A stretch of 64,000 bases of DNA, taken from assembly GCA_035297105.1 (NCBI GenBank), contig DATGZO010000006.1, positions 5,415 to 69,414 of the forward strand, in the 5' to 3' direction. This DNA comes from Thermoplasmata archaeon (lineage in GTDB: Archaea; Thermoplasmatota; Thermoplasmata; Lutacidiplasmatales; UBA184). This document shows, one piece after another, positions 20,414 through 35,650 of this stretch. Both the position numbers and the translations under genes were made by a program. Below the pieces are notes generated by a model. The model did not search any database. It worked only from the letters and a program-made list of their open reading frames with translations, and had not been told where the DNA came from. Positions within the stretch are counted from its first letter, which is position 1; every line of letters begins with the position of its first letter.

Positions 20414-21640
20414 GTGTACAGACCACCATCGGGGCTAAAGCCCGAACGCCATATCCCGCACGTGCGTCGTTCTACCCGGATCAACCTCAGCTCGGACGAA
20501 CTGGCTCGACTCCGAGGCTGGGTCGATGACCCCGCGACCCCGGCCCGGGTCCGCGACCGGTCCCGCATCCTGCTCTGGTCGGCCGCCGGTCATTCCGACG
20601 CGGAAATCTCGACCGGACTCGGCAAGGACGTGGCCACGGTCGCGCTGTGGCGACGACGCTTCCTGCTGCATGGACTCTCGGGAGCGCTCCGCGATGCGCC
20701 CCGCCCCGGTCGGAGGCCCAAGCACCGGGACTCCCTCAACGACCGCATCCTCGACGCCACGTTCAACGAAACGCCCCCTCGCGGAGCGCGCTGGAGCACG
20801 CGCGCGCTCGCCCAACGGTTCGGGGTGAGCCACATGGTCGTCCAACGCCTGTGGCAGTCTCAGGGGGTCGGCGCCAAGACCTCGTACCGGATCCCGGATC
20901 GGTTGGCGGGCGCCCAGCTCCCGTTTGTAGACTTGCTGGGGGTTATACTTCAGCCACCAACGCGGGTCGTGATCATCGGCGTGGAGCTCACCGGGGAGTC
21001 GCGAATCGCCCACGTCGAACCGTTGTTCCAGACCTTGCGGACGGAGCTCTCCGGAGGGCATCTTTTCCACTCAGTCCGAGCCGACCCCGAGGACCTGATC
21101 GCGTTGCTCGACGGGTTCCATGAGATTCCGGCCGGTCCGCCGGGACGGCGTTTGCAGCTCGCCAATCTCCTCATCCTCCTCCGAGAAATTGATGAGCGGA
21201 CGAGCGCCACGACCAGGGTCCATCTGCTGGCCGAAGGTCGGGGCGCGGCGAAGGACCCCCGGCTCGCGGCCTGGATGCGCCTCCATCCGCGCTTTGTCCT
21301 GCACAACCTGCCGGTGGGTTCGGAATGGGAACGCGAGGTCGGCCGCTTCGTCCATCAGTGGCAGTCCGTGACACTTCGCACCGGCAGTTTTCAGGGCGTC
21401 TCCGCATTCACCCGGGCCGCAGCGAGGTTCGCGGCCCGTCCTCCCGTCCACCGCGACGGCATGGCATGGAGCATCGGACCGATGCTCGATCGCGCTACGC
21501 AGCTTCATGCGAGCGGATCGGCTGTCCCGCCCCTGCCCAATTCCACGCGGTCCGTGGACGGCACATCGGCTCAACCACCGCCCACGTCAGAGAATTCACG
21601 ACTTAGTGAGAAATTTTCGTTACGAACCGTGGGTCCTTAA
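20414..21640 (+). CDS. IS630-family transposase-like protein with substituted catalytic triad
   Basis: N-terminal paired HTH typical of IS630/Tc1 (...ISTGLGKDVATVALWRRRF...WSTRALAQRFGVSHMVVQRLWQ...). The DDE_3-like region aligns as VIIGVELTG (for VLSVDEK), HLLAEGRG (for ILDNLSAH) and SEWEREVGRF (for SWLNPVERFF). No terminal inverted repeats or TA duplication were found. Confidence 0.55.
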   Translation: MYRPPSGLKPERHIPHVRRSTRINLSSDELARLRGWVDDPATPARVRDRSRILLWSAAGHSDAEISTGLGKDVATVALWRRRFLLHGLSGALRDAPRPGRRPKHRDSLNDRILDATFNETPPRGARWSTRALAQRFGVSHMVVQRLWQSQGVGAKTSYRIPDRLAGAQLPFVDLLGVILQPPTRVVIIGVELTGESRIAHVEPLFQTLRTELSGGHLFHSVRADPEDLIALLDGFHEIPAGPPGRRLQLANLLILLREIDERTSATTRVHLLAEGRGAAKDPRLAAWMRLHPRFVLHNLPVGSEWEREVGRFVHQWQSVTLRTGSFQGVSAFTRAAARFAARPPVHRDGMAWSIGPMLDRATQLHASGSAVPPLPNSTRSVDGTSAQPPPTSENSRLSEKFSLRTVGP

Positions 21641-21709
21641 TAAGCAGAACCCGTCCCCGCATTGCCCCTAGGGGCAGAACCGGGAATCTAAGGAGTGAAG
21701 GAAGGAAGA

Positions 21710-22237
21710 ATGGTAGCAAGAGCATTGTGGACATCTATTTTGGTGGTCGGGCTGTTGGCCGTGGGCGGAATCGGCTTTGCCGCGTTCACCGCGACGTATC
21801 AGGTGAACGTGCAGGGCACCGCCGGCAACCTCTCGATCGCGATCGCGAATTACAACACTCAAGTGAGCAGCTCGTACGTCGGCTGCGTCGGGAGCATTTC
21901 GGGCACCTACCTGAACATCTCGGCGGGACCGTTCGCGCCAGGCGACTGGTGCCAGGTTTACGGGAACATCACGAACACGGGCAACGTGCCCGCGACCGTC
22001 CTCGCCAACTGGCCGCACAGCGGCATCGACGCGTGCTTCGTTTGGAATGTGACGTACCCGACGCACAACCCCAACGTGCCGCCCTCGGGCCACGGCCTCC
22101 TACCGGGCGCGATGGAAAAGTTCCAGTTCGCACTCGGCTTGAACGCGACGGCCGGCAACTCGTGTGAGAACCACGTGGCGACGGTGACGATGGACTTCAC
22201 CGCGACCTCGATGGCTCCGAGCGCGCCGTTCCCGTAG
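21710..22237 (+). CDS. secreted TasA/camelysin-like (SipW-cognate signal) protein, copy 1
   Basis: N-terminus MVARALWTSILVVGLLAVGGIGFAAFTATYQVNVQGTAGNLSIAI resembles the SipW-cognate/TasA-type signal region (GG.T.AAFTD....N.F.AG.L). It is followed by a small beta-rich domain with N-glyc sequons. An SD-like AAGGAG lies upstream. Confidence 0.5.
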   Translation: MVARALWTSILVVGLLAVGGIGFAAFTATYQVNVQGTAGNLSIAIANYNTQVSSSYVGCVGSISGTYLNISAGPFAPGDWCQVYGNITNTGNVPATVLANWPHSGIDACFVWNVTYPTHNPNVPPSGHGLLPGAMEKFQFALGLNATAGNSCENHVATVTMDFTATSMAPSAPFP

Positions 22238-22273
22238 GAAAGAGGCGGTAGCCGGAATCAAGCGGAGAAGAAA

Positions 22274-22789
22274 GTGGTAGCAAAAGCACTGTGGACTTCG
22301 ATCCTGGTCGTCGGACTCCTGGCCGTGGGTGGACTGGGCTTTGCGGCGTTCACCGCAACGTACCAGGTGAACCTCCAGGGCACGGCGGGCAACCTGAGCG
22401 TCGCCTTCGGGGACTCCAACATGATCACGAGCCAGTCGTACGTCGGCTGCTGGGTCTCTGGTGAGGGCAGCAGCTGGCTCAACGTCAGCGCGGGGCCCTT
22501 CGCCCCGGGCGACTGGTGTGAAGTGTTCGGCAATCTCACGAACACGGGGAACGTCCCCGCGACCGTGACGACGTCCGCGACCCTGACCGATCCGGCGGGT
22601 TGTTTCGAGTGGGCTCTCTTGGCCCCGGAGTCGAGCTCTGTCACGGTGGCCCCGGGCGGCACCGTCGCCTTCCAAGGCGCCCTCGAGCTCAACCCCGCCG
22701 ATGGAAACAGCTGCCAGAACACGGTCGGAACTCTGTCGGTCACCTTCACGGCGACCGCCGGCAACGGCAACGAGAACGGGCCCTTCTGA
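22274..22789 (+). CDS. secreted TasA/camelysin-like protein, copy 2 (paralog of 21710..22237)
   Basis: GTG start. VVAKALWTSILVVGLLAVGGLGFAAFTATYQVNLQGTAGNLSVAF... is ~60 percent identical to copy 1 over the N-terminal half. Confidence 0.5.
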   Translation: MVAKALWTSILVVGLLAVGGLGFAAFTATYQVNLQGTAGNLSVAFGDSNMITSQSYVGCWVSGEGSSWLNVSAGPFAPGDWCEVFGNLTNTGNVPATVTTSATLTDPAGCFEWALLAPESSSVTVAPGGTVAFQGALELNPADGNSCQNTVGTLSVTFTATAGNGNENGPF

Positions 22790-22816
22790 GCGTAGGCTCC
22801 GAGTCTCCAGCACGTC

Positions 22817-22841
22817 CAACCCCTTCCTTCCTTTCTTATCC
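22817..22841 (+). terminator. pyrimidine-rich 3' motif CAACCCCTTCCTTCCTTTCTTATCC (shared with two other secreted-protein genes)
   Basis: Near-identical copies follow the stops of 27402..30815 and 30998..35605. Archaeal terminators are pyrimidine/T-rich tracts. Confidence 0.4.
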
Positions 22842-22929
22842 TACGACGGGTAGCGGGACACCTTGACCGGAGCGGCCGTCTCCTCTCGAAGGCCCCGATC
22901 GGTCCTGGCTCCGGGCTCGGACTAGACCG

Positions 22930-24357
22930 ATGATCGACTCCACCGAGGTCACGATCCTCCTCGGGACGATCGTGTTCCTCGCCCTCGTGCCAGCCGCCTT
23001 CCGACACTCCTGGTGGCCCTGGTCGGCCGCCGCCATCACGGTCTTGCTGGCGATGTTATACGACGCGCTCAGCTCCCTCGCAGTGGGCTCGTGGTTCTAC
23101 CTCGGCTATGCGCTCTTCGCCACCGCACCCCTCCTGGTCTTCTTGGTGTACGTTCGGTTCGCCGAGCGCGCGCGCCCGTTCGCCTTCGGACTCACGCTCC
23201 CCCAGGGGCAGACCCGGCGGATGGTCGCGCTCGCCCTCGTCCTCGCCGGCGTGTACTTCGTGCTCACGCTTGAACCGGGCTTTCTCCAGGGATTCACGGT
23301 CCCGGGCCTTCTCGACCCGGAAACGTTCGCGGTCTTCTTCCTCACGACCCCGCTGATCGCACTGGGGCAGGAGGCGGTCTTCCGCGGGTACTTCCTCACG
23401 AAAGTGGCCGGTCGTCATCCGTTCCGGCACGCCCTGTTCGCTTCCTCGGCCCTCTTCGCCGTGGTCTCGTTGAACCCCTTCCTCTTCGCGGAGTTCTCGT
23501 TCATCAGCCAGGTCCCCACGCTCTTCCTGACGGTCGGTACCGGGTTCGTCCTCGGCATCTTCCTCGGCCTCTTCTTTTACAAGGCCCATTGGAGCCTCCT
23601 CGGCCCCTGGGTCTTCCGTTCGGTGGTACTCGGGATCTCGCTCCTCTTCCCGGTCGCGGTCCGGGGCTTGGGGTGGGAGACCGTCTTCGTGCTCGACCTG
23701 ATCGCGCTCACCGCCGTGATCGTGGTCGTGTTCGTCGGCCTGCGGGAGCCCCGGTTCGAGGCCCGCCACTACCTGGACGAACCGCTCCAGCCACGTCGAA
23801 GGACGCTGCTCGCGCGCGCCCGCGCGCGACGGCGGGCGATCCCTCTGGTCGTCGTGCTCGGGGTTGCGGTACTGCTCGTGGCGTTCGCCGGCCCGATCGG
23901 GTCCGTTACCTCCCGGGCGCCGGTTCGTGTTCTCGCCATCGAGACCGGCAGCATGGCGCCGACATTCGATCGGGGGACGCTCGTTCTCATCGAAACGGTG
24001 GGGGGGCCGTCCGACCTCGAGGTAGGGGACATCGTGGCGTACAACGCGCCGTATCTCTCCCCGAACGGACCCGTGGTCCACCGCATCGTCGCCATCCACT
24101 TGAACGGCTCCCAAGAAGTGTTCACGTTCAAGGGAGACGCCAACCCGAGCCCCGACCCACGCCCGGTCGTGTTCAGTCAAGTGGTGGGAAAGGTTGTGAC
24201 CTACGTACCTTACCTGGGCTACCTGGTGCTGAGCCCGGAGCTCTCCGTGTCGATCCTCTTGATGCTGGTCCTCTTCGGATTCTACCGGGGTTCGCCGGAC
24301 GCGACCCCGGTTCGCCGACGGCGACCCGTGTTCCCACTTCGGAGGGAGCGCGCATGA
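22930..24357 (+). CDS. fusion protein: N-terminal CPBP-family intramembrane protease domain plus C-terminal archaeal/ER-type signal peptidase I (SipW-like)
   Basis: The N-terminal ~250 aa are polytopic with LGQEAVFRGYFL (the EExxxR motif of CAAX/CPBP proteases) and HALFASSALFA. C-terminal part: ...IETGSMAPTFDRGTLVLIE...GDIVAYNAP...VVHRIVAI...FKGDANPSPD...VVGKVVTYVPYLG. This has the S26B catalytic Ser (GSM) and His (HRIV) in the archaeal/SipW arrangement. Confidence 0.65.
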   Translation: MIDSTEVTILLGTIVFLALVPAAFRHSWWPWSAAAITVLLAMLYDALSSLAVGSWFYLGYALFATAPLLVFLVYVRFAERARPFAFGLTLPQGQTRRMVALALVLAGVYFVLTLEPGFLQGFTVPGLLDPETFAVFFLTTPLIALGQEAVFRGYFLTKVAGRHPFRHALFASSALFAVVSLNPFLFAEFSFISQVPTLFLTVGTGFVLGIFLGLFFYKAHWSLLGPWVFRSVVLGISLLFPVAVRGLGWETVFVLDLIALTAVIVVVFVGLREPRFEARHYLDEPLQPRRRTLLARARARRRAIPLVVVLGVAVLLVAFAGPIGSVTSRAPVRVLAIETGSMAPTFDRGTLVLIETVGGPSDLEVGDIVAYNAPYLSPNGPVVHRIVAIHLNGSQEVFTFKGDANPSPDPRPVVFSQVVGKVVTYVPYLGYLVLSPELSVSILLMLVLFGFYRGSPDATPVRRRRPVFPLRRERA

Positions 24358-25397
24358 GGTTCGCGGCCCTGCTTCTGGTCGCCCTTTCCCTCCTGCTCGT
24401 GGTCGCGCTGTACGCCGAGGTGAGCATCGATGCGAGCCCCACTCAGACGACGACGTCGGGCACCCTTCTTTCGTTCTCGACCACCACCAACTTCGATTAC
24501 CGGGCGACGCTTCGCCCCAACACCCTCTTCGGCAATGGAACGCTCGGCCCGGGCGGGGGTGCCCTCTACGAGAGTCTCGTCCTTCGGCTCGACCTGACGT
24601 ACTCGTACTGGCTCAACCTGAGCGCGCCGGCGAACGTGACGTGGGGAGCCGGGTTCTCCGTTACCATCGCGGTGCCGGGCCAGTGGACGTACACCCTCAA
24701 CTACAGCAAGCAGGTTCTCCCTCCCGAGGTCTACACCACCTCCGCCCCGTTCCACGACGACACGGAAGTTGCGTTGCCGCCCTTGCTGAGCCTTCTCTCC
24801 ACGTTCCAGAACGAGACGCGGTCCAACCCCTCGAGCTACGACCTCAACTTCACGGCGTACGAGGTGGCGGCCATTCAGTACGACAACCTCCCCGCTCACT
24901 CGGTGACGTACCCGGTCCTGACCTTCACGCTCGCCTCGGGGGAGCTCGTCCCGGGTCCCTTGTTCGCGAGCTCGAACGGCTCGATCCCGACGACCCTCCC
25001 AGTGACCGACTCTTCCCGCTCCACCAGCCTTGACCTCGCCATAGCGGCCTGCGTGATCCTCGCCGCCGGCGTGGGCATCGCGGCGGCCTTCACGCTACGT
25101 CCCCGGAACAAGAAGGTCGACGTCTCGGCCGAGGTCCGCTCGATGACCGCCGCCTACCAGGACGCCATCGCGACCACGTGGACCGCGCCGCGGAAGGAGA
25201 ACGTCGTAGTCATCCGCGACTGGGAGGACCTGATCCACGTGGCGGACATGTTGGGCAAACCGATCCTCCGGTACGTGCTGCGCAAGTACGACCCGCCCCG
25301 GCACTTCTTCTACGTACTCGACGGACAGGTCCAGTACATCTACCTCGTTCCGCGAGAGGGACGGCGGGCCGAGGAAGAGATCGCGGACCTCCCCTAA
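24354..25397 (+). CDS. bitopic membrane protein: signal peptide, N-glycosylated ectodomain, TM, ~100-aa cytoplasmic domain; translationally coupled to the signal-peptidase fusion gene
   Basis: MRFAALLLVALSLLLVVALYA then many N-x-S/T sites. TM segment LDLAIAACVILAAGVGIAAAFTL. The ATG overlaps the upstream stop (ATGA). Confidence 0.55.
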   Translation: MRFAALLLVALSLLLVVALYAEVSIDASPTQTTTSGTLLSFSTTTNFDYRATLRPNTLFGNGTLGPGGGALYESLVLRLDLTYSYWLNLSAPANVTWGAGFSVTIAVPGQWTYTLNYSKQVLPPEVYTTSAPFHDDTEVALPPLLSLLSTFQNETRSNPSSYDLNFTAYEVAAIQYDNLPAHSVTYPVLTFTLASGELVPGPLFASSNGSIPTTLPVTDSSRSTSLDLAIAACVILAAGVGIAAAFTLRPRNKKVDVSAEVRSMTAAYQDAIATTWTAPRKENVVVIRDWEDLIHVADMLGKPILRYVLRKYDPPRHFFYVLDGQVQYIYLVPREGRRAEEEIADLP

Positions 25398-25503
25398 CGG
25401 AGGAGCATGAAGGCGCCACGTAGAATGAAATGCGCTTGGAAGAAATTTTGAGGGAACCCACTAAAATGGATTTGACTCCGGACTTATGTTCCTGCTCGAC
25501 TAA

Positions 25504-26745
25504 ATGGTTGCCAGGTCAATCGTTACACCCCCTCTACCAGTTTCGCGCCAAACCCTCCGAATCCGCCACACGGTTCTGAGTTCACCGTCGCATCCTTTTG
25601 AATTCTGGGCGTCATCGGGACGCTCACACCGCGACTGGCTGACGATAGTGCTGGCCGTTGGGATTGTCTTGTTTGTGAGTGTGTCAACCGCCGGAAATTG
25701 GGGCCACCAACTCCAACCTAAGAACGTTTGGGCTTCTCAGATGGGTCAAACGAACGCGGCGGTCAGTCCGAGTCTTTGCGGACCCCCGTGTCCGTATAGT
25801 TCGCTTCAACTCGTCTTGCCGCCCGCTCCGGTCACTGGCTATCTTGCGAACATCAAATTCAATGGTACCATCTACACTCAGGACACTATTCTGAACGTGT
25901 TGCCCGGTACCTATCCGGTTTCTTTCGTGAGCCTGTATTCAAGCAATCCTGGAGCTGCCTTCCTTAACTGGACCGTAGTGAGTGGTTCCGTCGGTAGCAC
26001 TACGTCCTCTTCCACCACCTTTACCATCCTTAGCGGCGGGCTTTCCCCGATCCTCACCCTGAACGTGTTTCTCGTGACCTCTGTCTGGGCGGGGTATGCC
26101 GTGGCGGGGCACGCTGGTACAGTAACGCAGGTCGCCGGTTCGTGGGTTCAGCCTACGATGGGATGCAACCTAACCAAGAGCAGCAAGTCGGGGGTCCAGT
26201 TCTCGACATGGGTGGGGTTGGATGGTCTGTGGTCGACGAACCCGTACATTGAACAGATTGGGACGGAAGCGGTGTGTTCTCCGGGCGGTGCAACTTCCTA
26301 TGGGGCCTGGTACGAATTCGGTAATGGAGTTTACCCAGGTTCGGTCGCCATTACAACCATCACGCCCCATCCAGCCGACGTATTCTCGGGAACGGTCGTA
26401 TATAATTCCGCGACCTCCAATTTCACGATGAGCCTAACGGACCTCACCACGCTGGCGAGCTTCTCGATCACCCAGCCCTGGTCCTCCGCTACCGAATCAT
26501 CCGCGGAATGTATTCTCGAGCAAACGCAACCTTACTTGGCGAGTGAGTTCTGGTTCGTGGGCCAAGCCGGTTTCGGAAGTATGCACACCGGGGTCACCAA
26601 CACTTGCGATGCATCTGTCCGCTCCGCTCTTTCTCCATTCAGCTCTTTCAACTACCTTACCGTCGAGTTCTATTCGGGTACGTCGCATCAGCAACTTTAC
26701 CCCACCCAGCTCGTAGGTGGAAGTTTCAATGTCAACCACGGCTGA
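25504..26745 (+). CDS. peptidase family G1 (eqolisin / scytalidoglutamic peptidase-like) acid endopeptidase, membrane-anchored precursor
   Basis: G1 signature blocks: FSTWVGLDG, catalytic Gln in IEQIG, YGAWYEF, and catalytic Glu in SAECILEQ (compare fsaWvGiDG / lvQtG / aWyEw / sAEwIvE). TM anchor DWLTIVLAVGIVLFVSV. The gene and its flanks are lower in G+C than surrounding DNA. Confidence 0.8.
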   Translation: MVARSIVTPPLPVSRQTLRIRHTVLSSPSHPFEFWASSGRSHRDWLTIVLAVGIVLFVSVSTAGNWGHQLQPKNVWASQMGQTNAAVSPSLCGPPCPYSSLQLVLPPAPVTGYLANIKFNGTIYTQDTILNVLPGTYPVSFVSLYSSNPGAAFLNWTVVSGSVGSTTSSSTTFTILSGGLSPILTLNVFLVTSVWAGYAVAGHAGTVTQVAGSWVQPTMGCNLTKSSKSGVQFSTWVGLDGLWSTNPYIEQIGTEAVCSPGGATSYGAWYEFGNGVYPGSVAITTITPHPADVFSGTVVYNSATSNFTMSLTDLTTLASFSITQPWSSATESSAECILEQTQPYLASEFWFVGQAGFGSMHTGVTNTCDASVRSALSPFSSFNYLTVEFYSGTSHQQLYPTQLVGGSFNVNHG

Positions 26746-27365
26746 AGGATTCCTATCGAATACGTGAGTCGGTGGATTTCGAATTCCCACATCGACTGAC
26801 GCGTGCCGAGGCCATACCCCCCACATCTATCGGGCTACCAGCCTTGAGACATCAAGGCACAGCGTGATCCTTACCGCTCGAGAGGCCAACCCGGGATTGT
26901 GCCGCCCCGACCTCGCCCTGATTCCGCGGCGCTCGCGACTGTTGAGAGTGCGGAGGGGAGTGTCCCCTCCGCCCCCTTGTGGAGGGGATCGGTCCCAGGT
27001 TTCGGATCGACGGATTGGAATCGATTGACGCAAAGTAGGCACCTCGTAACTTCGTTGGCCGGCTATCACCCCACTTTGGTGTGGTCTTCTGGCGTGGCGT
27101 TTTGCTTGGGGACGCCGGCCCTCCCCCTCGAAGGAACGGGGAAAGACCTTCACGACTTTCAGGTTCAGGCCCGCGAAAAAGCCCAGACCGCGCCGGTCCG
27201 GCGAGCGATCCAGGCGGCAGGTCGGTTCGACCGGATCTCACCGAAGCGCAGACGATGAGCCCCTGACGCATCCACGTCCACGGAGGCGAGGTGGGAAATC
27301 GGGCGGCTCTAGAAGGTCTTGCGAATTGAGGGAAACTTGTTTGCAGAATTTGTGGTGCGGACGGT

Positions 27366-27378
27366 TGTTAAATAGGGT
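27366..27378 (+). promoter_or_regulatory. TATA-like box (GTTGTTAAATAGG) ~25 nt upstream of the ATG at 27402; implies a leaderless or very short-leader mRNA
   Basis: An AT-rich octamer in otherwise GC-rich DNA at the canonical archaeal -26 spacing relative to the start codon. Confidence 0.4.
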
Positions 27379-27401
27379 GCGAGATTCGCGCGTGCCGGAA
27401 T

Positions 27402-30400
27402 ATGGCCGACCGTCGAGCAGTTCTGCTGGGCACCGCCTTGGTGACTTTGATCATGGTCCTGTCTGCGATGGGACTCCTCCTCGTGGTGGCTCCGCCCGCG
27501 GGCGCCCACTCGACGGCCGTGTCCGTCGTCACAACGGGTGCGCCCGCGCGGATGGCGGCGGGCGGGACTTCGAGCCCTCCGACATCGGCGGGCCCGGCCA
27601 GCCGACTCAATGTGCCGGCGACCTCGACGACCCTGAGCCCTCTCGCTGAGAAGGTGCTCACCTCGGCCCATGCCCAAGGCATTCCGAACCGGGACGTCTT
27701 CGTTCCCCGTGCCGGAGCCACTCCCGCCCAGGAGGCTCGTGCCGGGGCCCAGGGCCACGTGACCCCGTTGTACGGCCAGTACTCCCCGGCCCCAATTGGG
27801 CTCGCCGATTACGGTCTCTCCGCGAACACGAACGGCAACGGGAGCATCGTCCCCTCGATCCTCAACACCTCGGCTCTCCTTGCGACGTTCGCCCCGAACG
27901 CCACCGGCGTTCTCGCGGCCTACCCCTTCGACAGCTCGCCAGACGCCTACGGCGTACAATTGAACGCCGTGAGCACGGCGATCAACCTGTTCGGAAACTC
28001 CAGCTACTCGTTCTGGACGCAGAACGTCGCCGAGTTCTACCCGACCTCGGGGACGCTCTACCTCGTCACCAATGTCTGGAACTTCTCCGGAGCATCCATC
28101 TCGGGCAACGCATTCTACACCACGGGGACGCTGGGGACCGACAACTCGGCGTCCTACGGGTCGGCCGGATTCTACTACTCCGAGTACATCGTCACCGGTC
28201 TCTCGTATCCGTTCACCCTGAATTTGTACATGAACAGCACGCTGAACTCGACTCGGAACATGGTCACGTTCTCCGTCGGGATCAACGACCCAAGCAACCC
28301 CGGCGTGTCAGGCGGTTACCCCTACGACTACGTCGTGTTCAACTCGTCCGCGGCGGTCCAGTCGAACTACGAGGCGAACGGCTTCACGTACAACGCCCTT
28401 GGCCTGACCAACGACTTCGAGGTCATCCTCGGAGGGCCGGGCGGCGGCGCCACCTCGGACCTGTTCGATGCGGACGCCAACCTCTCCCTCCAGTACTGGA
28501 ACGCCAGCGCGGGCTCCTACGAAGAAGTCCCGACGGCGTTCTCGTATGGCGGCGAGACGGGGGAGACGGTCACCGGCGCCAACGTGGCCTGGGCGATCAA
28601 CTCCACGGGTTCTCCCTACGGGGTCGTCACGACAGGGCCTGGCATCCTGGAAGGACTGTGGAACGCCACGGGCGCCCAGGGCGCCTACCCGGTCACCCTC
28701 GACATCACTCCATCGAACGCGTTCTACTTCGTAGCGCCGAACTGGACGAGCAACTTCACGTATGAAGGGGACCCGTACTGGGCGCCGCAGGAGTTGAACG
28801 GCGGGGTCTTCTACCTCGCTCCCGGGAACTACAACATCAGCATCCTACTGAGCGACTACGACCCGGTGTACACGAATTTCATCGTGACGTCGGCCGGTGT
28901 GACCATCACCATGACCCTGACGGCCGACGCGTCGATGGGCATCTACGCCCCCTTATACTTCTGGAACAACAATCAGTTCGCCGCGTTGTCTAGCAGTGGA
29001 TCCGGCACTCCCTCGAGCCCGTGGCAGATCGACAACACTCAGACGCTGGCGTTCCCCTCGGTGTTCGGTCTGTTCAATGACTACACGTTCCCCGTGTTCA
29101 CGGGCGTGTTCATCTGGGGCACGACCGACTCCGTGGTCCTGAACGACATGCCCGCGCTGACGACTGGGTCGCCCTACATCAACTTCCCGGCCACGAACGA
29201 CCTCGGGTACATCTTCTACTACGCGTCGAACATCGCGCTCGTCAACTCCACCCAGATCAGCGGATGGTTCACGACGAACGTGGCCTCCGGGATCGGGTAC
29301 GGGTTCATTGGGAACTATTACGCGACGTTCAGCGTCCTCGAGTGGGAGTCGACCGGAATGCTGTTCTCGGGCGACACCTTCCAGGTCCAGGCGGGCGGCA
29401 TCTACGCCGCCGACGGGACCTCGAACACGTTCTGGGGCAACACGTTCGAGGATGTCGCGATCCCGACGTTCGCGGCGTGCGCGACGTTCCACATCTGCGC
29501 CGAGAACCTGAGCCTCGGCCTCCAGCTCGCCGAGGGCGGCGACACGGTCTACAACAACGCGTTCAACCTGCCGGACCCCGCGTCGGAACCGCCGTTCGAC
29601 CTGTACACGGGCTCTGAAGTGCTCTGGACCAACACCTGGAACATCACCCCGACCCCCGCTGCGACCGTCAACTACGCGGCCGGCTGGCCGGACTTTCCCC
29701 TGACTGGGACGATCATCGGCAACGCGACCCAGGGCGGCAACTACTGGTCGAATTACGGTAACAGCGCCAACCCCACCGGCATGCTCCCGTACAACAACAG
29801 CCAGCCGACGGGCGCACCCTACGGGCAGATCTACAATGGGGGCGACTACTACCCGCTGGTCTACACCTACTACGCGGTCACCTTCACCGAGTCGGGCCTC
29901 ACGGCCGGTACCATGTGGACGGTCACGCTGAACAGCGTGGCCCAACACTCGTCGGGAACGACCATCGTGTTCAACGAGATCAACGGCGTGTGGCCCTTCA
30001 CCGTCTCGCTCGTGAGCGGCTACCACGCGCCCGTCCCCGCCACCGGGTCGATCACGGTGAACGGTGCGGCGACCGGACAGACGGTCACCTTCACGGCGAT
30101 CGCCCCGCCCCCGACGTATACCGCGACGTTCACGGAGACCGGGCTGGCGGCCTCGACCAATTGGTCGGTGACGTTCAACTCGGTCGTGTACTATTCGACG
30201 ACCGGTACCATTAGCATCTCGGGACTGGCGAACAATACGTACCCGTGGACCCTCAGGGCCCAGACCGGCTTCACGGCGAACCAGACCACCGGCAACGTGG
30301 TGATCGCGGGCGCGGACGTGGCGACCTTCATCGGGTTCACGGCCGTGACCCCGGCGACCTACACGGTGACGTTCACCGAGACGGGCCTCCCGTCGGGAGC

Positions 30401-30815
30401 CAGCTGGACCGTGACGCTCGCGGGCACTCCGAGTACCCAGACGACGGCGTCCATCACGTTCTCGGGTCTCGTGAACAACACCTATGCCTACACCCTCGGA
30501 GCCGTGACGGGCTACACGTCCTCGGTCACCTCGAGCTCGGTGATCGTGGCCGGTGCCTCCAAGACCGTGGGCGTGACGTTCACCGCGTCGAGCAGCCCCC
30601 CGCCGTCCGGCTCGGGTAGCAGCAGCGGCCTGTCCACGCTGGACTGGATCATCATCGGCGTCGTGATCGCGGTCATCATCATCGCCCTGATCATCGCGCT
30701 CGCCATGCGCGGCCGGTCGGGCGGCGGTGGGTCGAACACCGGAAGTTCCCCGAAGGAAGAGTCGGGGGACAGCTCGAACATGGACGACGGCTCGTCCGGC
30801 GGGGGCTCTGCGTAG
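27402..30815 (+). CDS. large N-glycosylated surface protein: signal peptide, thermopsin (peptidase A5)-like N-domain, four tandem ~85-aa Ig-like repeats, Ser/Pro linker, C-terminal TM anchor
   Basis: MADRRAVLLGTALVTLIMVLSAMGLLLVVAPPAGA signal. The N-domain (...PIGLADYGL...FWTQNVAEFYP...) resembles archaeal thermopsin-family proteases, but this assignment is from memory of the family. Repeats are of the type YTVTFTETGLPSGASWTVTLAGTPS...ITFSGLVNNTYAYTLGAVTGYTS. The C-terminus is ...SSGLSTLDWIIIGVVIAVIIIALIIALAMRGRSGGGG.... Confidence 0.6.
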   Translation: MADRRAVLLGTALVTLIMVLSAMGLLLVVAPPAGAHSTAVSVVTTGAPARMAAGGTSSPPTSAGPASRLNVPATSTTLSPLAEKVLTSAHAQGIPNRDVFVPRAGATPAQEARAGAQGHVTPLYGQYSPAPIGLADYGLSANTNGNGSIVPSILNTSALLATFAPNATGVLAAYPFDSSPDAYGVQLNAVSTAINLFGNSSYSFWTQNVAEFYPTSGTLYLVTNVWNFSGASISGNAFYTTGTLGTDNSASYGSAGFYYSEYIVTGLSYPFTLNLYMNSTLNSTRNMVTFSVGINDPSNPGVSGGYPYDYVVFNSSAAVQSNYEANGFTYNALGLTNDFEVILGGPGGGATSDLFDADANLSLQYWNASAGSYEEVPTAFSYGGETGETVTGANVAWAINSTGSPYGVVTTGPGILEGLWNATGAQGAYPVTLDITPSNAFYFVAPNWTSNFTYEGDPYWAPQELNGGVFYLAPGNYNISILLSDYDPVYTNFIVTSAGVTITMTLTADASMGIYAPLYFWNNNQFAALSSSGSGTPSSPWQIDNTQTLAFPSVFGLFNDYTFPVFTGVFIWGTTDSVVLNDMPALTTGSPYINFPATNDLGYIFYYASNIALVNSTQISGWFTTNVASGIGYGFIGNYYATFSVLEWESTGMLFSGDTFQVQAGGIYAADGTSNTFWGNTFEDVAIPTFAACATFHICAENLSLGLQLAEGGDTVYNNAFNLPDPASEPPFDLYTGSEVLWTNTWNITPTPAATVNYAAGWPDFPLTGTIIGNATQGGNYWSNYGNSANPTGMLPYNNSQPTGAPYGQIYNGGDYYPLVYTYYAVTFTESGLTAGTMWTVTLNSVAQHSSGTTIVFNEINGVWPFTVSLVSGYHAPVPATGSITVNGAATGQTVTFTAIAPPPTYTATFTETGLAASTNWSVTFNSVVYYSTTGTISISGLANNTYPWTLRAQTGFTANQTTGNVVIAGADVATFIGFTAVTPATYTVTFTETGLPSGASWTVTLAGTPSTQTTASITFSGLVNNTYAYTLGAVTGYTSSVTSSSVIVAGASKTVGVTFTASSSPPPSGSGSSSGLSTLDWIIIGVVIAVIIIALIIALAMRGRSGGGGSNTGSSPKEESGDSSNMDDGSSGGGSA

Positions 30816-30836
30816 GGGTTCCGGCGAACCCAGGGC

Positions 30837-30862
30837 CAACCCTTTCCTTCCTTTCTCCTTCG
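30837..30862 (+). terminator. pyrimidine-rich 3' motif CCAACCCTTTCCTTCCTTTCTCCTTC
   Basis: It lies 22 nt after the stop of 27402..30815 and is shared with 22817..22841 and 35627..35650. Confidence 0.4.
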
Positions 30863-30965
30863 GTTCATCCGACCGGGCGACGGCCCTCTCAGGCCACCGG
30901 GCCACGGGCCGGCACCGGGGAAGAGCGGCGCGCGGATTCTGCAGGAATCGCCGAGGTCACGAGAC

Positions 30966-30973
30966 TTAAGTAG
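30966..30973 (+). promoter_or_regulatory. TATA-like box (CTTAAGTA) ~25 nt upstream of the ATG at 30998
   Basis: Same spacing as for the paralogous upstream gene. Confidence 0.35.
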
Positions 30974-30997
30974 CGAGCCCCGTTCGCAACGGTGAAC

Positions 30998-33900
30998 ATG
31001 GCCGACCGTCGAGCCGTACTGCTGGGCGCCGCTCTCGTAACCGTCCTCATGGTCCTCTCTTCGATGGGGCTCCTTTCGGGTCTTGCCGGAGCCACGGGCT
31101 CTCACCCGGCTACGGCGGCCACCGTTAGCGCCACCACGACCGTCTCGAGTTCGGTCGCCCCCGCACGGATCCCGGGCGGCTCGACCGGGTTCGGAGGCGG
31201 ACACTTCCTCCCGACCCCGACCGCCGCGAACGCCCCCACAACGACCCGGGCCGCCCCGTCCGTGGGTTCGGTCTCCCCGGTCGTCGCCAAAGTGGAGAGT
31301 CAGATCGCCAACCACCAGATCAATCCGTCGAGCGTCTTCCTCCCGAGCGCCTTCACCCACACCGGCGCCGCCCCAGCGTCGGGGATCTCTCCCACGTACC
31401 CCGGCACGCCGGCGCCAATGGGCCTCGCCGACCTCGGGGTCGGCGCGGGGGGCAATTACGAATACAACACGACCAGTTTCGCCTCATTCCTGACCCTCAA
31501 CAACTTCACCGACTACAACCCCGGTTATGCCGGGTGGGACGCCCCGCCGAACTACATGACGTTCCAGCTCAACACGGTCACGGTCAACGTCTCCTACCCC
31601 GGCGGTACGCACGGGGTCTTCTGGATCCAGAACGTCGCGCACTTCAACGGGACCGACCTCCAGTTCGAGAACAACATCTGGAACATGACCGCCGCCGGGG
31701 TCGGGCTCAATGCGGGAACTCTCGCGCCCGGATACCAGGGAACCCTCGTTGCCGGCGAATTCTACTACACGTACGGACCGCTCTTCCAGGTCCATTACCC
31801 TTTTTCGCTCAACCTGTACAACAACATCTCGACCGCCGGCGGCGTGCCAAGCGTCTACTTCAACTACACGATCACCAACGCGACCCTCGGCGGGTTCACC
31901 CAGAATTGGTCGGCGTACTACGACCACGTCACGTTCAACGGCAACCTGGTCTCGGGCGCTCCCCCCGAGTTCGAAGTGAACGGGTACAACTACAATCCCG
32001 CCGGCCTCCTCTGGGACGCCGAGCTCATCTTCGGCGGGAACGGGGGCGGCGCCAACGCGGTCATCACTCAGCTGAACGGTTCGGCCAACCTCGAGTCTTG
32101 GAACAACGTCACGAAGCAGTACACGAACGTCTCGTCCGCGTACGACTACGGTGAGGACACCGGCGAGACGGCCGTGGGCGTCGCGAGCTACTACCTCGGA
32201 ACCACCGAATACCTGAGCCAAGGTCCCTCGATCCTGTACGGGCTCTGGAACACGGCCAACTCCTCCTTCGGCCCGGCGGCCCTACCCGGCTGGATCTCCG
32301 TCACCTACGGCACGACCGTGAACTACGCGTTCAGCTTCTTCGAAACCGAGGACAATTACTACACCGCGGGCGACAACTGGAGCTACGCTCCCACGGACCT
32401 CGCCGGTATCGGGGTGACCCGACTCCCCCCTGTCTGGTCGAACAACGAGTACGACTTCGCCGCTTGGGCGGACGGATACGACCCGGTGAGCCCGCTCATC
32501 GTCGGGGGCAACACGACGGTAGAAGTCCTTCTCAACAGCGACCCGAGTGTGTTTAACGCCCCGGTCTACCTCAGCTCCGACGCGCAGGCGAGCAGCTTCG
32601 GATTCGCGGGGATCTACGGGGTCTCCTGGACGAGCATCTCCGGCGTCAGCAATCTTTCCATCAATGACAGTAAGGCGGCTATCGCTCCGGCGTTCCTCCA
32701 ACTGAACGATTTCCGGTTCGCCACGTTCTTCCTGGCCGCCGTGGATAACCTCACCACGTCGGTCTACCTCAACGGATTCCTCCAGGACCCCACAACTTTC
32801 AACTACAGCTTCTACGCGCACACCCTCCATCTCCCCGGTTGGACCCAGGGTTACTACTTCAACTACGGCTCGGGAATCTACACCGTCACCAACACGACCA
32901 TCACCGGTAACGCGGATGTTGAGTTCTGGAGCACGCTGTACAGCAGTGCCTCCAACATCGTGACGTCCGGCGACTCGTTCGGAGTCGACGTCCTCCAGGG
33001 GAACTACACGGAGTTCGACAACATCACGAGCGAGACCGGCGCCAACGCGATCGGCGTGATGAACTCCTACGAGGTCTTCGGGTACGATCTTTCGTCCAAC
33101 GGGACGGACGTGAACGCGGTGCCGAGCTGGGCGGCGTACCTGTTCGCCAGCCAGGACGTCTACCTGTTCACGACCACTACGACCAACGGCGCGCTCGGCA
33201 TTTACAGCGACCAAATCGAAAGCTTCTACTACGTAGGACTGACCGCCACCAACGCCTACGCGGCCCTGGAACTTCTGGACACCGGCTTCGGCGAGGTCAC
33301 CGACCTCCTCGTCAATCACTCCTACGGCGTCTACGCCGACCTCTACGGGTACGTCGACTTCTACAACTGGACGTTCACGAACGGCTCCTCGGGGGGCAAC
33401 CTGTTGGACGGCGTCGGCGGGGAATACGTGTACGGCCTCAACGTCGTGGACTCGAGTGGGCTATACCTGGAAGGGATCACGGGCCTGCTCGCCCACTTCA
33501 TCAACGCCTCGGGCCCCTCGAGCTACGGGATCGAAGCGTCAACGACCAACTACTCCTCCTTCTACAATGTGACCGCGGTCAACAACGCCGAAGGGGTCGT
33601 CGTCGAAGGGGGGCAGAACGTTTCGGCCGCGAACATTACCTCCCGCCTCGGTTCCTTCGGATTCGGGATCCTCGGCGCCCAGAATGTCACGGTCGCGAAC
33701 GTGACCGTCTCCGACGGCGCGGCGGGTGCGCTCGTGGAGAGCAGCGAGAACGTCACGGTCGCCAACGTCACCGTCTCGGGCGTGGGCGTCGGGGTCGGCG
33801 TGATCGCGGACGAGTACGTCCTGGTCGACAACGTCAACTCGACGGCGGCCACCCCCGGGCCGGAGTACTTCTCGACCACCCAGATCCGCAGCGCCCCCAA

Positions 33901-35605
33901 CGCGGCGGTCGCTTCCATCCACAATGAATACGCGGAGATCCTGCACGTTTCCGCGTACAACGCGGGTTTCGCCCTCGAGGACAACGGCTCGAACGAATTG
34001 CTCGCCGTGAACATCACGTCCTGGTATGCCCAAGTCGGTGTCCAGTTCAACGGGACGGTGAATGCCACCGTCGCGGAGGCGTTCCTGTTCGGGAGCGGCA
34101 TTGGTGTGGTGTTCCAGAACACGACGAACGTGGATCTCGAGGCGAGCACCTTGGAAGCTTCCGCCAGCTACGGGGTCTCGGTCGAGAACGGCAGCGAGAT
34201 CTTCGTTACCGCGAACAACTTCGTCGCCAACAACGGCGCCAGTACCAACGAGCACTTCGACATGTACATCTTGCAAGCCGCGTCCGTGGGGGCGACCTTC
34301 GTGTACTTCGACGTGTCGGGCGTCGGTAACTACTGGTCGGACTGGAACCCTGCAGGCGGATCCTATATCATCGCGTCCGGCGTGACCGACGGAAACCCCA
34401 GCGGGTACTTCATCACCAACTGGCTCGAATTCATGGAAACGGGTCTCCCCGCCTACACGACGTGGGGATTCACGCTGGACACGATCACCTACACGACCAG
34501 CGCTCCTCTCGTGTTCATCCCGAGCTGGTCGCTCGGGGACCCGAACCTCGGGTACGTGGTGGACCCCCCGGTGGGGTACACCCCGACCCCCGCCTCCGGG
34601 ACCGTCCCCTACACGGGGGTCAACACGACCGTGACGATCGCCTTCGCGGCTATCCCGTACACCGTGACGTTCGACGAATCGGGACTCGCGAGCGGGACTT
34701 CCTGGTCGGTTACGTTCGACGGAACGCCCCAGTCGGGGACGGGCAGTTCGATCGTATTCTCGAACGTCATCGTCGGAACCTACGCGTATACGATCGCCCC
34801 CGTACCCGGCTACACCGCCCTACCCACCAGTGGCTCGGTCACGCTGGCAGGATCGGACAAGACGGTCGATGCGGCGTTCACCGTGGTCACGTACGCGGTC
34901 ACCTTCACGGAGAGCGGGCTCGCGCCCGGTACCTCCTGGTCGGTCACGCTCGGATCGCAGACCACCCCCTCGACCACGAATACGATCCAGTTCGGCGAGC
35001 CGAATGAGACGTACACCTACACGATCGCCGCGGTGGCGGGCTACACCGCCAACGTGACCCACGGTTCGATAACGGTCCAGGGTCAGGCGAAGTCGGTATC
35101 GATCGCGTTCACCGCAGTGACCCCCGTGACCTACTCGGTGACCTTCTCCGAGACGGGACTCGCGACGGGATTGACCTGGTCGGTGACCTTCGCCGGGACC
35201 CCGAAGTCGGCGGCCGCCGGAGCGACCATCACCTTCGCGGGCCTCGCGAACAACACGTACTCCTACACGGTCGGAGCCGTCACGGGCTACACGTCGTCGG
35301 TCACCTCGAACTCGGTGATCGTGGCCGGCAACTCCCCGTCCGTGACCGTGACGTTCAGTGCGACAAGTAGTCCGCCACCGCCCGCCTCCTCCGGGAGCAG
35401 TGGCGGCCTGTCCACACTGGACTGGGCGATCATCGGCATCGTGATCGCGCTCCTCATCGTGGGAATGCTGGTGGCCCTGATGCGGCGCGGTCGGGGCGGA
35501 GCGGCTACGACCCCTGCCGCGGCCACGAACCCGCCACCCCCCAAGCCCTGGGACGAGGGAAGCGCGGGCCAATCCCCCCCGGACCCATCGGAAGGGACCC
35601 CCTAG
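30998..35605 (+). CDS. giant N-glycosylated surface protein (paralog of 27402..30815): thermopsin-like N-domain, parallel beta-helix repeat region, five tandem Ig-like repeats, TM anchor
   Basis: MADRRAVLLGAALVTVLMVLSSMGLL (the ORF track starts at GTG 30992; the ATG at 30998 matches the paralog). The N-domain has ...PAPMGLADLGV... Right-handed beta-helix-like repeats (NVTVANVTVSDGAAGALVESSENVTVANVTVSGVGVG). Five repeats of the form VTFTESGLAPGTSWSVTLGS...YTYTIAAVAGYTA. The C-terminus ...GGLSTLDWAIIGIVIALLIVGMLVALMRRGRGG... has a DNA-level 3' end ~85 percent identical to the paralog. Confidence 0.6.
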   Translation: MADRRAVLLGAALVTVLMVLSSMGLLSGLAGATGSHPATAATVSATTTVSSSVAPARIPGGSTGFGGGHFLPTPTAANAPTTTRAAPSVGSVSPVVAKVESQIANHQINPSSVFLPSAFTHTGAAPASGISPTYPGTPAPMGLADLGVGAGGNYEYNTTSFASFLTLNNFTDYNPGYAGWDAPPNYMTFQLNTVTVNVSYPGGTHGVFWIQNVAHFNGTDLQFENNIWNMTAAGVGLNAGTLAPGYQGTLVAGEFYYTYGPLFQVHYPFSLNLYNNISTAGGVPSVYFNYTITNATLGGFTQNWSAYYDHVTFNGNLVSGAPPEFEVNGYNYNPAGLLWDAELIFGGNGGGANAVITQLNGSANLESWNNVTKQYTNVSSAYDYGEDTGETAVGVASYYLGTTEYLSQGPSILYGLWNTANSSFGPAALPGWISVTYGTTVNYAFSFFETEDNYYTAGDNWSYAPTDLAGIGVTRLPPVWSNNEYDFAAWADGYDPVSPLIVGGNTTVEVLLNSDPSVFNAPVYLSSDAQASSFGFAGIYGVSWTSISGVSNLSINDSKAAIAPAFLQLNDFRFATFFLAAVDNLTTSVYLNGFLQDPTTFNYSFYAHTLHLPGWTQGYYFNYGSGIYTVTNTTITGNADVEFWSTLYSSASNIVTSGDSFGVDVLQGNYTEFDNITSETGANAIGVMNSYEVFGYDLSSNGTDVNAVPSWAAYLFASQDVYLFTTTTTNGALGIYSDQIESFYYVGLTATNAYAALELLDTGFGEVTDLLVNHSYGVYADLYGYVDFYNWTFTNGSSGGNLLDGVGGEYVYGLNVVDSSGLYLEGITGLLAHFINASGPSSYGIEASTTNYSSFYNVTAVNNAEGVVVEGGQNVSAANITSRLGSFGFGILGAQNVTVANVTVSDGAAGALVESSENVTVANVTVSGVGVGVGVIADEYVLVDNVNSTAATPGPEYFSTTQIRSAPNAAVASIHNEYAEILHVSAYNAGFALEDNGSNELLAVNITSWYAQVGVQFNGTVNATVAEAFLFGSGIGVVFQNTTNVDLEASTLEASASYGVSVENGSEIFVTANNFVANNGASTNEHFDMYILQAASVGATFVYFDVSGVGNYWSDWNPAGGSYIIASGVTDGNPSGYFITNWLEFMETGLPAYTTWGFTLDTITYTTSAPLVFIPSWSLGDPNLGYVVDPPVGYTPTPASGTVPYTGVNTTVTIAFAAIPYTVTFDESGLASGTSWSVTFDGTPQSGTGSSIVFSNVIVGTYAYTIAPVPGYTALPTSGSVTLAGSDKTVDAAFTVVTYAVTFTESGLAPGTSWSVTLGSQTTPSTTNTIQFGEPNETYTYTIAAVAGYTANVTHGSITVQGQAKSVSIAFTAVTPVTYSVTFSETGLATGLTWSVTFAGTPKSAAAGATITFAGLANNTYSYTVGAVTGYTSSVTSNSVIVAGNSPSVTVTFSATSSPPPPASSGSSGGLSTLDWAIIGIVIALLIVGMLVALMRRGRGGAATTPAAATNPPPPKPWDEGSAGQSPPDPSEGTP

Positions 35606-35626
35606 TACGACCGAGGGCGGCCGGGA

Positions 35627-35650
35627 CCAACCCTTTCTTTTCGTCTTTCC
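35627..35650 (+). terminator. pyrimidine-rich 3' motif CCAACCCTTTCTTTTCGTCTTTCC
   Basis: Third copy of the shared downstream element. Confidence 0.4.

Follow-up and report, generated by a model that had tools for sequence, protein, structure and literature searches.

An ancestral thermopsin gene pair and a probably inserted G1 glutamic peptidase gene in a Thermoplasmata archaeon

Introduction

How did three genes of acid-protease families come to lie side by side in the DNA of a Thermoplasmata archaeon? The question is raised by a stretch of 64,000 nucleotides (the window hereafter; overall G+C 0.665) from a metagenome-assembled genome (MAG) of the Lutacidiplasmatales (GenBank assembly GCA_035297105.1, contig DATGZO010000006.1, positions 5,415 to 69,414 of the forward strand). 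Three plus-strand open reading frames (ORFs) occupy positions 25398-35650 of the window: a gene for a family G1 (eqolisin) glutamic peptidase, followed by two thermopsin-family genes, thermopsin-1 and thermopsin-2. A preliminary description, made from the letters of the DNA, had regarded them as one protease island in which the G1 gene was possibly acquired horizontally. Our analysis indicates that the thermopsin pair is ancestral, and that a foreign G1 gene was quite probably inserted beside it later. Features of this interval are given on the plus strand.

The soil and peat Thermoplasmatota are uncultured, and they are thought to live on peptides. The locus was present in seven contigs of six metagenome samples (JGI 3300009522, 3300009698, 3300010379, 3300027905 and 3300030707, and the Logan assembly of SRR6195974), all of them at least 99.9% identical to the window and with the same insert junctions; these seven contigs hold no usable strain diversity. 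We take the JGI samples to be peat metagenomes, and the habitat is presumably acidic peat. All three protease genes were already correctly named by the NCBI pipeline; for example, thermopsin-1 is a 'thermopsin family protease'. The labels L009-L012, L023, L024 and L026 denote loci or contigs that were compared, and P0002, P0007 and P0178-P0191 denote G1 homologue proteins.

Family membership and composition of the G1 gene

The G1 gene (25504..26745) encodes 413 aa in its longest model and contains the motifs FSTWVGLDG, IEQIG and SAECILEQ, from which the family had been read in the preliminary description. The assignment was confirmed by Pfam, as PF01828 (Peptidase_A4/G1) matched residues 194-360 with an E-value of 1.8e-18 (67.2 bits; cutoff 22.3). 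The catalytic pair is also present. Gln251 in IEQIG (codon 26254..26256) aligns with Gln24 of the heavy chain of aspergilloglutamic peptidase (1y43), which is Q133 of the precursor; Glu339 in SAECILE (codon 26518..26520) aligns with heavy-chain Glu110, which is E219 of the precursor. Both residues were invariant in alignments of 31 and 32 homologues (A1 and A6). The catalytic domain (aa 187-413; 26062..26742) was modelled by AlphaFold2 (AF2) with a predicted local distance difference test score (pLDDT) of about 90, and the top five PDB matches of the model were the solved G1 enzymes 2ifw, 2ifr, 1s2b, 3trs and 1y43 (E-values from 2e-10 to 8e-6; target-normalised template modelling (TM) scores 0.76-0.82). 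The next matches were the glutamic-class neprosin and legume lectins. The predicted fold is a β-sandwich of two seven-stranded antiparallel sheets, as the family requires. These results show that ORF 25504-26745 is a member of the G1 (eqolisin) glutamic peptidase family.

No other gene of the window deviates as strongly in composition as the G1 gene. The G+C of the ORF is 0.558; of the 1242-bp sliding windows, only 0.6% reach so low a value, and all of these overlap the G1 gene. The G+C at third codon positions (GC3) is 0.63, compared with a mean of 0.847 in the 41 other genes of the window (standard deviation 0.046, minimum 0.742; z = -4.7), and the leave-one-out log-likelihood of the synonymous codons gave z = -3.9. 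The G+C and codon usage of the segment, which had been proposed as a check, are thus well outside the variance of the window. The AT-rich segment described previously is real; however, its bounds are about 25300-26850 rather than 25400-27400. The G+C at first and second codon positions is nearly equal in the G1 gene (0.51/0.54) and thermopsin-1 (0.50/0.54); whereas the thermopsin genes have a GC3 of 0.87-0.89 despite an amino-acid mix similar to that of the G1 protein. Therefore, the anomaly lies at the synonymous sites and is not a by-product of a Ser/Thr/Asn-rich protein.

The insertion site and the DUF1801 scar

A scan for thermopsin-1 relatives, with one genome per species, revealed eleven loci, including ten from Thermoplasmata MAGs and one weak match from a Bathyarchaeia MAG. 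The gene order in L012 and L009 is the same as in the window: TldD/PmbA, glyoxalase, branched-chain aminotransferase (BCAT), a helix-turn-helix (HTH) protein, two small secreted paralogues, a CPBP-signal peptidase fusion, DUF5305, a gap, thermopsin-1, thermopsin-2 and DUF3303. The neighbouring proteins share 79-94% identity with those of L012 and 73-90% with those of L009; the corresponding values for thermopsin-1 are 72-74% and 64%. The G1 gene is missing at the syntenic site in three sister species (L012, L009 and L011), and a tblastn search with the G1 protein gave no match in L012 or L009. The spacer between DUF5305 and thermopsin-1 is 544 bp in L012 and 596 bp in L009; whereas it is 2004 bp in the window. 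The DNA similarity between the window and L012 breaks off at 25414 and returns at about 26985-27053. The extra DNA is a segment of about 1.56 kb with a G+C of 0.56 (25415..26975, each junction placed within about 15-40 nt), which carries the G1 gene and is missing in the sister genomes.

The spacer of the sister genomes codes for a small DUF1801 protein. Its frame is uninterrupted in L011 and L012, and about 55 codons are in frame in L009. The Pfam family PF08818 matched the L011 copy with an E-value of 1.5e-7, above the Pfam cutoff, and the L012 copy with 5e-5; whereas the remnant in the window gave no match. This remnant (27054..27258) was located by tblastn with the L012 protein and is a pseudogene, in which the N-terminal ~50 codons are gone and a frameshift lies at about 27124, with aa 51-74 in frame +3 (27054-27125) and aa 74-117 in frame +1 (27124-27255). 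Since the 5' half of the DUF1801 gene is destroyed in the window and the sister genomes are without the G1 gene, the presence of the G1 gene at this site is better explained by a gain than by a loss elsewhere. At the right edge of the insert is a G+C-rich hairpin with a 10-bp stem (GCGGAGGGGA-GTG-TCCCCTCCGC; inverted repeat I8; 26945..26977, not assigned to a strand). The 656 nt on the 3' side of the G1 gene had been described as about 650 nt of non-coding DNA; however, the region is not simply non-coding, as it is composed of the 3' tail of the insert with the hairpin, the DUF1801 pseudogene and the promoter region of thermopsin-1.

The sequence comparison therewith supports the G1 gene as an insertion of about 1.56 kb beside an ancestral thermopsin pair, and the possible horizontal acquisition in the preliminary description gains support from the synteny with L012 and L009 and from the DUF1801 truncation. 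The G1 gene would have joined the lineage after its split from the closest sampled relatives, on a segment with its own AT-rich upstream region. This segment would have entered the spacer between DUF5305 and thermopsin-1, at the cost of the 5' half of the DUF1801 gene that was resident there. The 5' leader of the insert (25415..25503; G+C 0.44) contains the TATA-like boxes AAATTTT and CTAAAAT, and might be the G1 gene's own promoter. Other genes are found upstream of thermopsin-1 in more distant relatives (L011 4744-7404 and L010 6838-9268), and were labelled by reading their sequences as MoaD/ThiS-like, a 373-aa protein and a DUF1211-like membrane protein; therefore, the spot is variable between species.

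Start and domain structure of the G1 protein

The start of the G1 gene differs between the public gene models, which give proteins of 413, 334 (JGI) and 309 aa (NCBI). The 413-aa model is favoured here, because ATG 25504, where the frame opens, is immediately preceded by a stop codon, and because the only hydrophobic helix is encoded there. Moreover, the clade relatives described below share an N-terminal helix, and all single-domain homologues begin with signal peptides. The helix (aa 44-66; 25633..25701) is a predicted membrane anchor or signal-anchor that is found only in the 413-aa model; it was recognized by hydropathy, and AF2 predicted a helix at aa 43-58. If the true start were one of the internal ones (309 or 334 aa), the G1 protein would not be exported, and the product might be cytoplasmic or inactive. 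Two of the three public gene models do begin downstream of the membrane helix. However, such a start seems unlikely given the open frame with a stop codon immediately before it, the clear helix, and the signal peptides of the single-domain homologues. Upstream extension of the ORF also gives the L024 relative the same N-terminal helix; P0182, P0183, P0185 and P0191 have one as well; and the GC3 of the window gene is equally low on both sides of the internal starts.

Between the helix and the catalytic domain is a β-rich pre-catalytic domain (aa ~101-186; 25804..26061), as P0178 aligns to aa 101-411 of the query. This domain is common only to the archaeal multidomain G1 clade. It weakly resembles the InlB B-repeat, with an E-value of only 0.047 for Pfam Flg_new_2, and this region is without an AF2 model. 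A homology between the pre-catalytic domain and the stalk repeats of the thermopsin proteins was considered but not adopted, as the matches were weak and driven by composition (E-value about 3e-4 without composition correction). Judged by its sequence, the G1 protein may be a secreted protease with an acid optimum. With its N-terminal anchor, extra β-domain and Gln/Glu β-sandwich, it would add a third surface acid protease, of the pepstatin-insensitive type.

Relatives and origin of the G1 gene

A k-mer-based homologue search revealed nothing between 100% and 41% identity, and the weaker matches included bacterial names. The best hit was P0002, which is located on a contig with a G+C of 0.69, adjoins a thermopsin gene and has a native GC3 of 0.89. 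In the first neighbour-joining (NJ) tree, reconstructed from the k-mer hits, the window gene had the longest branch of all, and its sister was without support (39% bootstrap). That tree was superseded by an exhaustive HMMER search of 1.84 billion representative proteins, which gave 1451 matches at an E-value of 1e-3 or lower. Six of these proteins (P0178, P0179, P0182, P0183, P0185 and P0191) share more than the catalytic domain with the window G1 protein. An N-terminal membrane helix is part of the annotated protein in five of the six, and P0179 has one upon upstream ORF extension in L024. The clade also shares one or more pre-catalytic β-domains (the P0178 alignment starts at query residue 101), and has specific motifs: SAEC instead of SAEW, and FG..TG..NTC, which give two invariant cysteines. 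In the NJ tree of 90 sequences, the sister of the window gene was inside this multidomain clade in 92 of 100 bootstraps.

The genomic contexts of the clade are also informative. P0179 is on the NCBI contig L024 together with genes for the archaeal RNA polymerase subunit K (RpoK) and the mevalonate pathway, which indicates an archaeal source. All G1 genes of the clade have a low GC3 (0.57-0.68); whereas the flanking genes in L024 and L026 have 0.82-0.95. In L023, L024 and L026, the G1 gene adjoins a gene for a large NHL/β-propeller surface protein of equally low GC3; these pairs (L024 9590-14461; L026 288-5871; L023 573-4948) have a GC3 of 0.61-0.71 for both genes, and might represent a low-G+C islet that recurs. 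The C-terminal repeats and anchor of the propeller proteins in L024 and L026 are homologous to the stalk of thermopsin-1 and thermopsin-2 (E-value 6.5e-29). No NHL/propeller partner gene was found in the window. Because the only close clade consists of similarly built G1 genes with a similarly low GC3 in archaeal contexts, the donor was probably another archaeon of the same broad group with a lower G+C (about 56-60%), and not a bacterium. A degenerate DNA pattern for the clade was also run against metagenome contigs; its single hit was a chance match in a bacterial contig.

Four contigs have enough flanking DNA for comparison (the window, L024, L026 and partly L023). The GC3 of the G1 gene in them is 0.61-0.68, that of the partner gene 0.63-0.71 (L024, L026 and L023), and that of the host neighbours 0.82-0.95. 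As a tentative idea, which we hold to be possible rather than probable, the window G1 gene might represent, on its own, a previously undescribed cassette of low G+C that spreads between high-G+C Thermoplasmata of acid soils, with no integrase that could be recognised. Besides the gene for the membrane-anchored G1 peptidase with its several domains, such a cassette would in most cases carry that for an NHL β-propeller surface protein with the same type of stalk. If true, it would imply either repeated uptake from an unsampled lower-G+C archaeal pool, or a force that keeps the synonymous sites AT-rich.

Alternative explanations for the G1 gene

The low GC3 throughout the clade might also be read in another way. 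The G1 gene could have been at this site from the start and lost by deletion from the sister lineages, and its low GC3 could be a property of the gene clade, caused for example by rare-codon selection or by low expression of a dangerous protease. The GC3 of every clade member stays between 0.57 and 0.68 although they are 35-41% identical, and the copies in L024 and L026 are in high-GC3 genomes; a bias that persists over such divergence is hard to square with a single recent transfer. However, the truncated and frameshifted DUF1801 gene is located exactly at the right junction, whereas its frame is uninterrupted in L011 and L012 and about 55 codons long in L009; and three sister species are without the G1 gene at this site. 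The AT-richness also includes the non-coding 5' flank of the insert, and the neighbouring thermopsin genes reach their high GC3 with a similar amino-acid mix. The adjacent NHL gene elsewhere is as low in GC3 as the G1 gene, which fits a low-G+C island better than a gene-specific codon rule. An ancestral G1 gene thus appears to have only a small chance of being correct, and the later insertion of a foreign G1 gene is preferred.

Several observations still weigh against the insertion of a foreign gene. There are no terminal inverted repeats or convincing target-site duplications around the insert, no integrase flanks it, and there is no tRNA in the window; the nearby HTH_23/HTH_32 gene (20414-21640) is syntenic in the sister genomes. 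Searches for G1 relatives in plasmid, phage and IMG/VR sequences revealed nothing. No sequence closer than 41% identity was found among the 1.84 billion representatives, the donor genome is unsampled, and no native low-G+C host genome was found for the clade. The low GC3 of clade members that are 35-41% identical, some of them in high-G+C genomes, might reflect a bias intrinsic to the gene. The word 'recent' is based only on composition and on absence from the sister species; the copies of the locus are about 99.9% identical, and selection on the G1 gene is therefore not measurable. The differing starts of the G1 gene in the annotations (413/334/309 aa) belong to these observations too.

A donor among the acidophilic bacteria (Actinomycetota, Acidobacteriota or similar), where G1 peptidases are common, is still less probable. 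It was suggested by the first homologue search, which listed Kitasatospora, Solirubrobacteraceae and Actinomycetota; moreover, P0007 (35-42% identity) is in a contig with TonB-dependent receptor genes and hence bacterial. However, the exhaustive search gave a closer clade with the same domain order, the SAEC and NTC motifs and bootstrap support; the bacterial proteins are single-domain and have AEW rather than AEC. In addition, L024 is clearly archaeal, and the partner gene of the clade carries stalk repeats of the Thermoplasmata type. Finally, that the low-G+C segment is a chimera of metagenome assembly, as its foreign composition and the metagenomic source of the window might suggest, is hardly credible, given identical junctions in the five JGI samples and the Logan assembly of SRR6195974, the consecutive accessions HLM90826-HLM90829 for the G1 and flanking proteins in the NCBI MAG, and a DUF1801 scar that is consistent with a biological insertion.

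The thermopsin pair

The N-terminal domains of the two larger proteins had been proposed as thermopsin-like, and they were strongly matched by the thermopsin profile (PF05317) with nearly full-length coverage: 146 bits for thermopsin-1 (1137 aa; 27402..30815; E-value 1.9e-42) and 182 bits for thermopsin-2 (1535 aa from ATG 30998; 30998..35605; E-value 1.5e-53), compared with a cutoff of 25. The description of two tandem paralogous genes, rich in N-glycosylation sequons and with membrane anchors, is also correct. The identity between the two proteins is 31% in the N-terminal part (~640 aa) and rises to 54% in the C-terminal 287 aa. They contain 24 and 46 N-X-S/T sequons, respectively (2.1 and 3.0 per 100 aa); this density is ten- to fourteenfold that of the cytoplasmic proteins of the window (0.21). 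Both have a C-terminal membrane helix. Lys and Arg together make up only 1.2% of their residues.

Protein 1 consists of a signal peptide (aa 1-35), the thermopsin (A5) domain (aa 121-392; 27762..28577; motifs QLN, FWTQNV, NVWN, DFEVILGGPGGG and ETGET), a middle region, three stalk repeats of about 80 aa (Y.VTFTE[ST]GL...W.V; 29871..30614), a Ser/Pro/Gly linker, a membrane anchor (30642..30707) and a short tail. Protein 2 has a signal peptide, the thermopsin domain (31391..32182; Pfam and alignment A5), a right-handed β-helix or NosD-like region (33458..33820; Pfam Beta_helix and NosD), four stalk repeats (34424..35386), a linker, a membrane anchor (35420..35485) and a tail. Both anchors were recognized by hydropathy. 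The stalk repeats are not covered by any Pfam family; those of protein 2 are 54% identical to those of protein 1, and the DNA is 79% identical over about 350 nt. This identity, which includes the last repeats, the linker and the anchor, suggests gene conversion or strong constraint. The ~80-aa repeat (Y.VTFTE[ST]GLP.GT.W.V...) is also found in otherwise unrelated propeller proteins of other Thermoplasmata, for example at 11240-14461 of L024.

The signal and anchor segments, the very low Lys and Arg content and the high sequon density point to a location on the cell surface, in agreement with the extracellular setting that had been suggested earlier. Both proteins would be exported by a Sec-type signal peptide and heavily N-glycosylated, and would be held on the surface by the C-terminal membrane anchor below the stalk. 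There they presumably digest extracellular protein at low pH, near the peptide transporters of the cell.

Each thermopsin gene appears to have its own promoter. A TTAAATA box (27369..27375), about 30 nt before the ATG of thermopsin-1, is kept in the sister genomes (alignment A4), and might be the promoter of a leaderless transcript. The pyrimidine-rich tract after thermopsin-1 (CCAACCCTTTCC...; 30836..30863) might be an archaeal terminator, and a near-identical tract follows thermopsin-2. The ORF of thermopsin-2 opens at 30992 (1537 aa); however, its start is most likely ATG 30998 (1535 aa), because the CTTAAGTA box, a putative thermopsin-2 promoter (30965..30972), is located about 26 nt upstream of it. 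The two genes are also in tandem in L012, L009 and L011, and their composition is native. Therefore, the three proteases are not one operon or island. Of the island in the preliminary description, the clustering of three genes of acid-protease families remains; whereas the thermopsin pair is ancestral, each gene has a putative promoter of its own, and the G1 gene alone was inserted. The clustering is thus an old thermopsin pair plus a newcomer G1 gene.

Thermopsin-2 of the window is only 53% identical to that of L012 (13566-18176), a lower value than those of thermopsin-1 and the neighbouring proteins in the same comparison; protein 2, a predicted surface protein, therefore evolves fast. All thermopsin-1 relatives from the genome scan were archaeal, which fits the restriction of family A5 to archaea.

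Conserved residues and fold of the thermopsin domain

In alignment A5, the motifs QLN, Q(N)V and WN are invariant, as are D.E in DAEL/DFEV and E in (D/E)TGE. Rawlings (2013; PMC3842238) listed Gln109, Asn111, Gln128, Asp129, Asp144, Asn148, Asp228, Asp257, Asp302 and Glu305 as possible active-site residues of the family. Among them, Asp129 is Asn in both window proteins; Asp144 is Thr in protein 1 and Asn in protein 2; and Asp302 is Glu in protein 1. The position of Asp129 is Asn in 43 of 75 family members (PMC3842238). As the catalytic residues of the family are not established, the activity of the window proteins cannot be judged from these substitutions.

Sequence searches for a solved structure among the relatives of the thermopsin proteins detected none. 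The domain of thermopsin-2 (31322-32314) was modelled by AF2 from a 9-sequence alignment, with a pLDDT of 64 and a predicted TM score (pTM) of 0.75, and the model is all-β. Its best PDB match was the di-glutamate mucinase HC7 of Bacillus cereus (8pn5; E-value 9e-5), with a TM score of only 0.39; the next matches were ulvan lyase and the N-terminal domains of coronavirus spike proteins. These are jelly-roll sandwiches, and not the pepsin fold. As a weak lead from the model, the invariant Asp201, Asp232, Glu234, Glu282 and Gln103 (numbering of the modelled segment) might be candidate catalytic residues of the thermopsin family. A distant kinship between thermopsin and G1 was also considered and rejected. 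The profile-profile probability was 0.1%, with only a 9-column DAELI/SAEWI coincidence; the PDB profile search gave no support either, and the thermopsin model retrieved no G1 structures.

Comparison with known systems

The window G1 protein belongs to the same Pfam family as scytalidoglutamic and aspergilloglutamic peptidase (MEROPS G1; 2ifw, 1s2b and 1y43), with the two-sheet fold in the model and the Gln/Glu pair in the same motifs; however, the sequence identity is only 18-25%. Compared with the fungal enzymes, it is archaeal, has AEC rather than AEW beside the catalytic Glu and a clade-specific second Cys (NTC motif), and has an N-terminal membrane anchor and an extra region of about 120 aa in place of a short propeptide. 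Jensen et al. (2010; PMC3009609) reported pepG1 of Alicyclobacillus sp. and archaeal G1 homologues of Acidilobus, Caldivirga and Picrophilus, and already proposed a transfer into archaea. In that prokaryotic branch, as in the window protein, the catalytic pair is conserved, and the members are secreted enzymes of acidophiles. They are secreted single-domain proteins of about 270 aa; whereas the window protein is in a separate multidomain, membrane-anchored clade with an anomalous codon composition.

The thermopsin of Sulfolobus acidocaldarius was reportedly described by Lin and Tang in 1990. The window proteins share with it the match to the family profile and the conserved QLN, FW.QNV, N.WN, DAEL/DFEV and DTGE/ETGE motifs. 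However, thermopsin is a 340-aa secreted enzyme of a thermophile; whereas the window proteins have 1137 and 1535 aa, with stalk repeats, an anchor and, in protein 2, a β-helix, and come from a mesophilic peat archaeon. The evolution of family A5 with lateral transfer, its restriction to archaea and its link to acidic habitats were described by Rawlings (2013; PMC3842238). According to the same paper, thermopsin is pepstatin-sensitive. The preliminary description had considered both families pepstatin-insensitive, which is right for G1 but not for A5.

Sheridan et al. (2022; PMC9287336) described the Lutacidiplasmatales as a high-G+C (about 69%) order of acid soils, in which S53, thermopsin and A4 (= G1) are the most prevalent extracellular peptidases. 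Thermopsin and A4/G1 are thus combined there as they are at this locus; the extracellular peptidases of Cuniculiplasma (Golyshina et al. 2016; PMC5155288) are a further known repertoire for comparison. The Lutacidiplasmatales survey is a gene inventory; neither this locus with its insertion and DUF1801 scar nor the low-GC3 clade is described in it. Only three points of the present analysis are new: the insertion with its scar, the multidomain membrane-anchored archaeal G1 clade, and the persistent low GC3 of this clade.

Neighbouring genes and other features of the window

Directly upstream of the proteases is a SipW/TasA-like secretion module (21695-25397), and its gene order is kept in L012, L009 and L011. 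The two paralogous small secreted proteins of the module (180 and 171 aa as ORFs) are 58% identical, and their N-termini end in '...GFAAFTATYQV', which resembles SipW-cognate signals. The module also includes a CPBP/Rce1-like intramembrane protease fused to an S26 signal peptidase (22930-24357), and a DUF5305 protein (24354-25397).

Other parts of the window were also inspected. An archaeal RNase P RNA is located at 3459-3764 on the plus strand (197 bits), and a minus-strand ORF (3397-5466; 689 aa) that overlaps it has no Pfam match and is probably at least partly spurious. The RNase P RNA agrees with the archaeal source of the window, for which NCBI lists identical proteins under 'Thermoplasmata archaeon'. 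A candidate C/D-box small RNA is at 2555-2612 on the minus strand, with a score (45 bits) right at the cutoff; in the intergenic DNA, Rfam gave nothing above noise. No convincing ORF was seen in about 850 bp (42132-42985) that separate a small gene from the gene of a PKD-domain surface protein; the 1-kb bin 42001-43000, in which most of this stretch lies, has a G+C of 0.58.

Biological meaning

The locus overturns no current knowledge, as all three proteins are of known kinds and the event is an ordinary gene gain. It is a clean and polarised example of an acid-soil archaeon enlarging its extracellular acid-protease set, and the pseudogene scar dates the event relative to the sister species. 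The encoded proteins are candidate acid-stable proteases, proposed as pepstatin-insensitive. That the archaeal G1 clade keeps a low GC3 within genomes of high G+C might reflect a route of gene flow not recognised so far. Moreover, separating the ancestral proteases from the recent gains helps to explain the niche of the soil and peat Thermoplasmatota.

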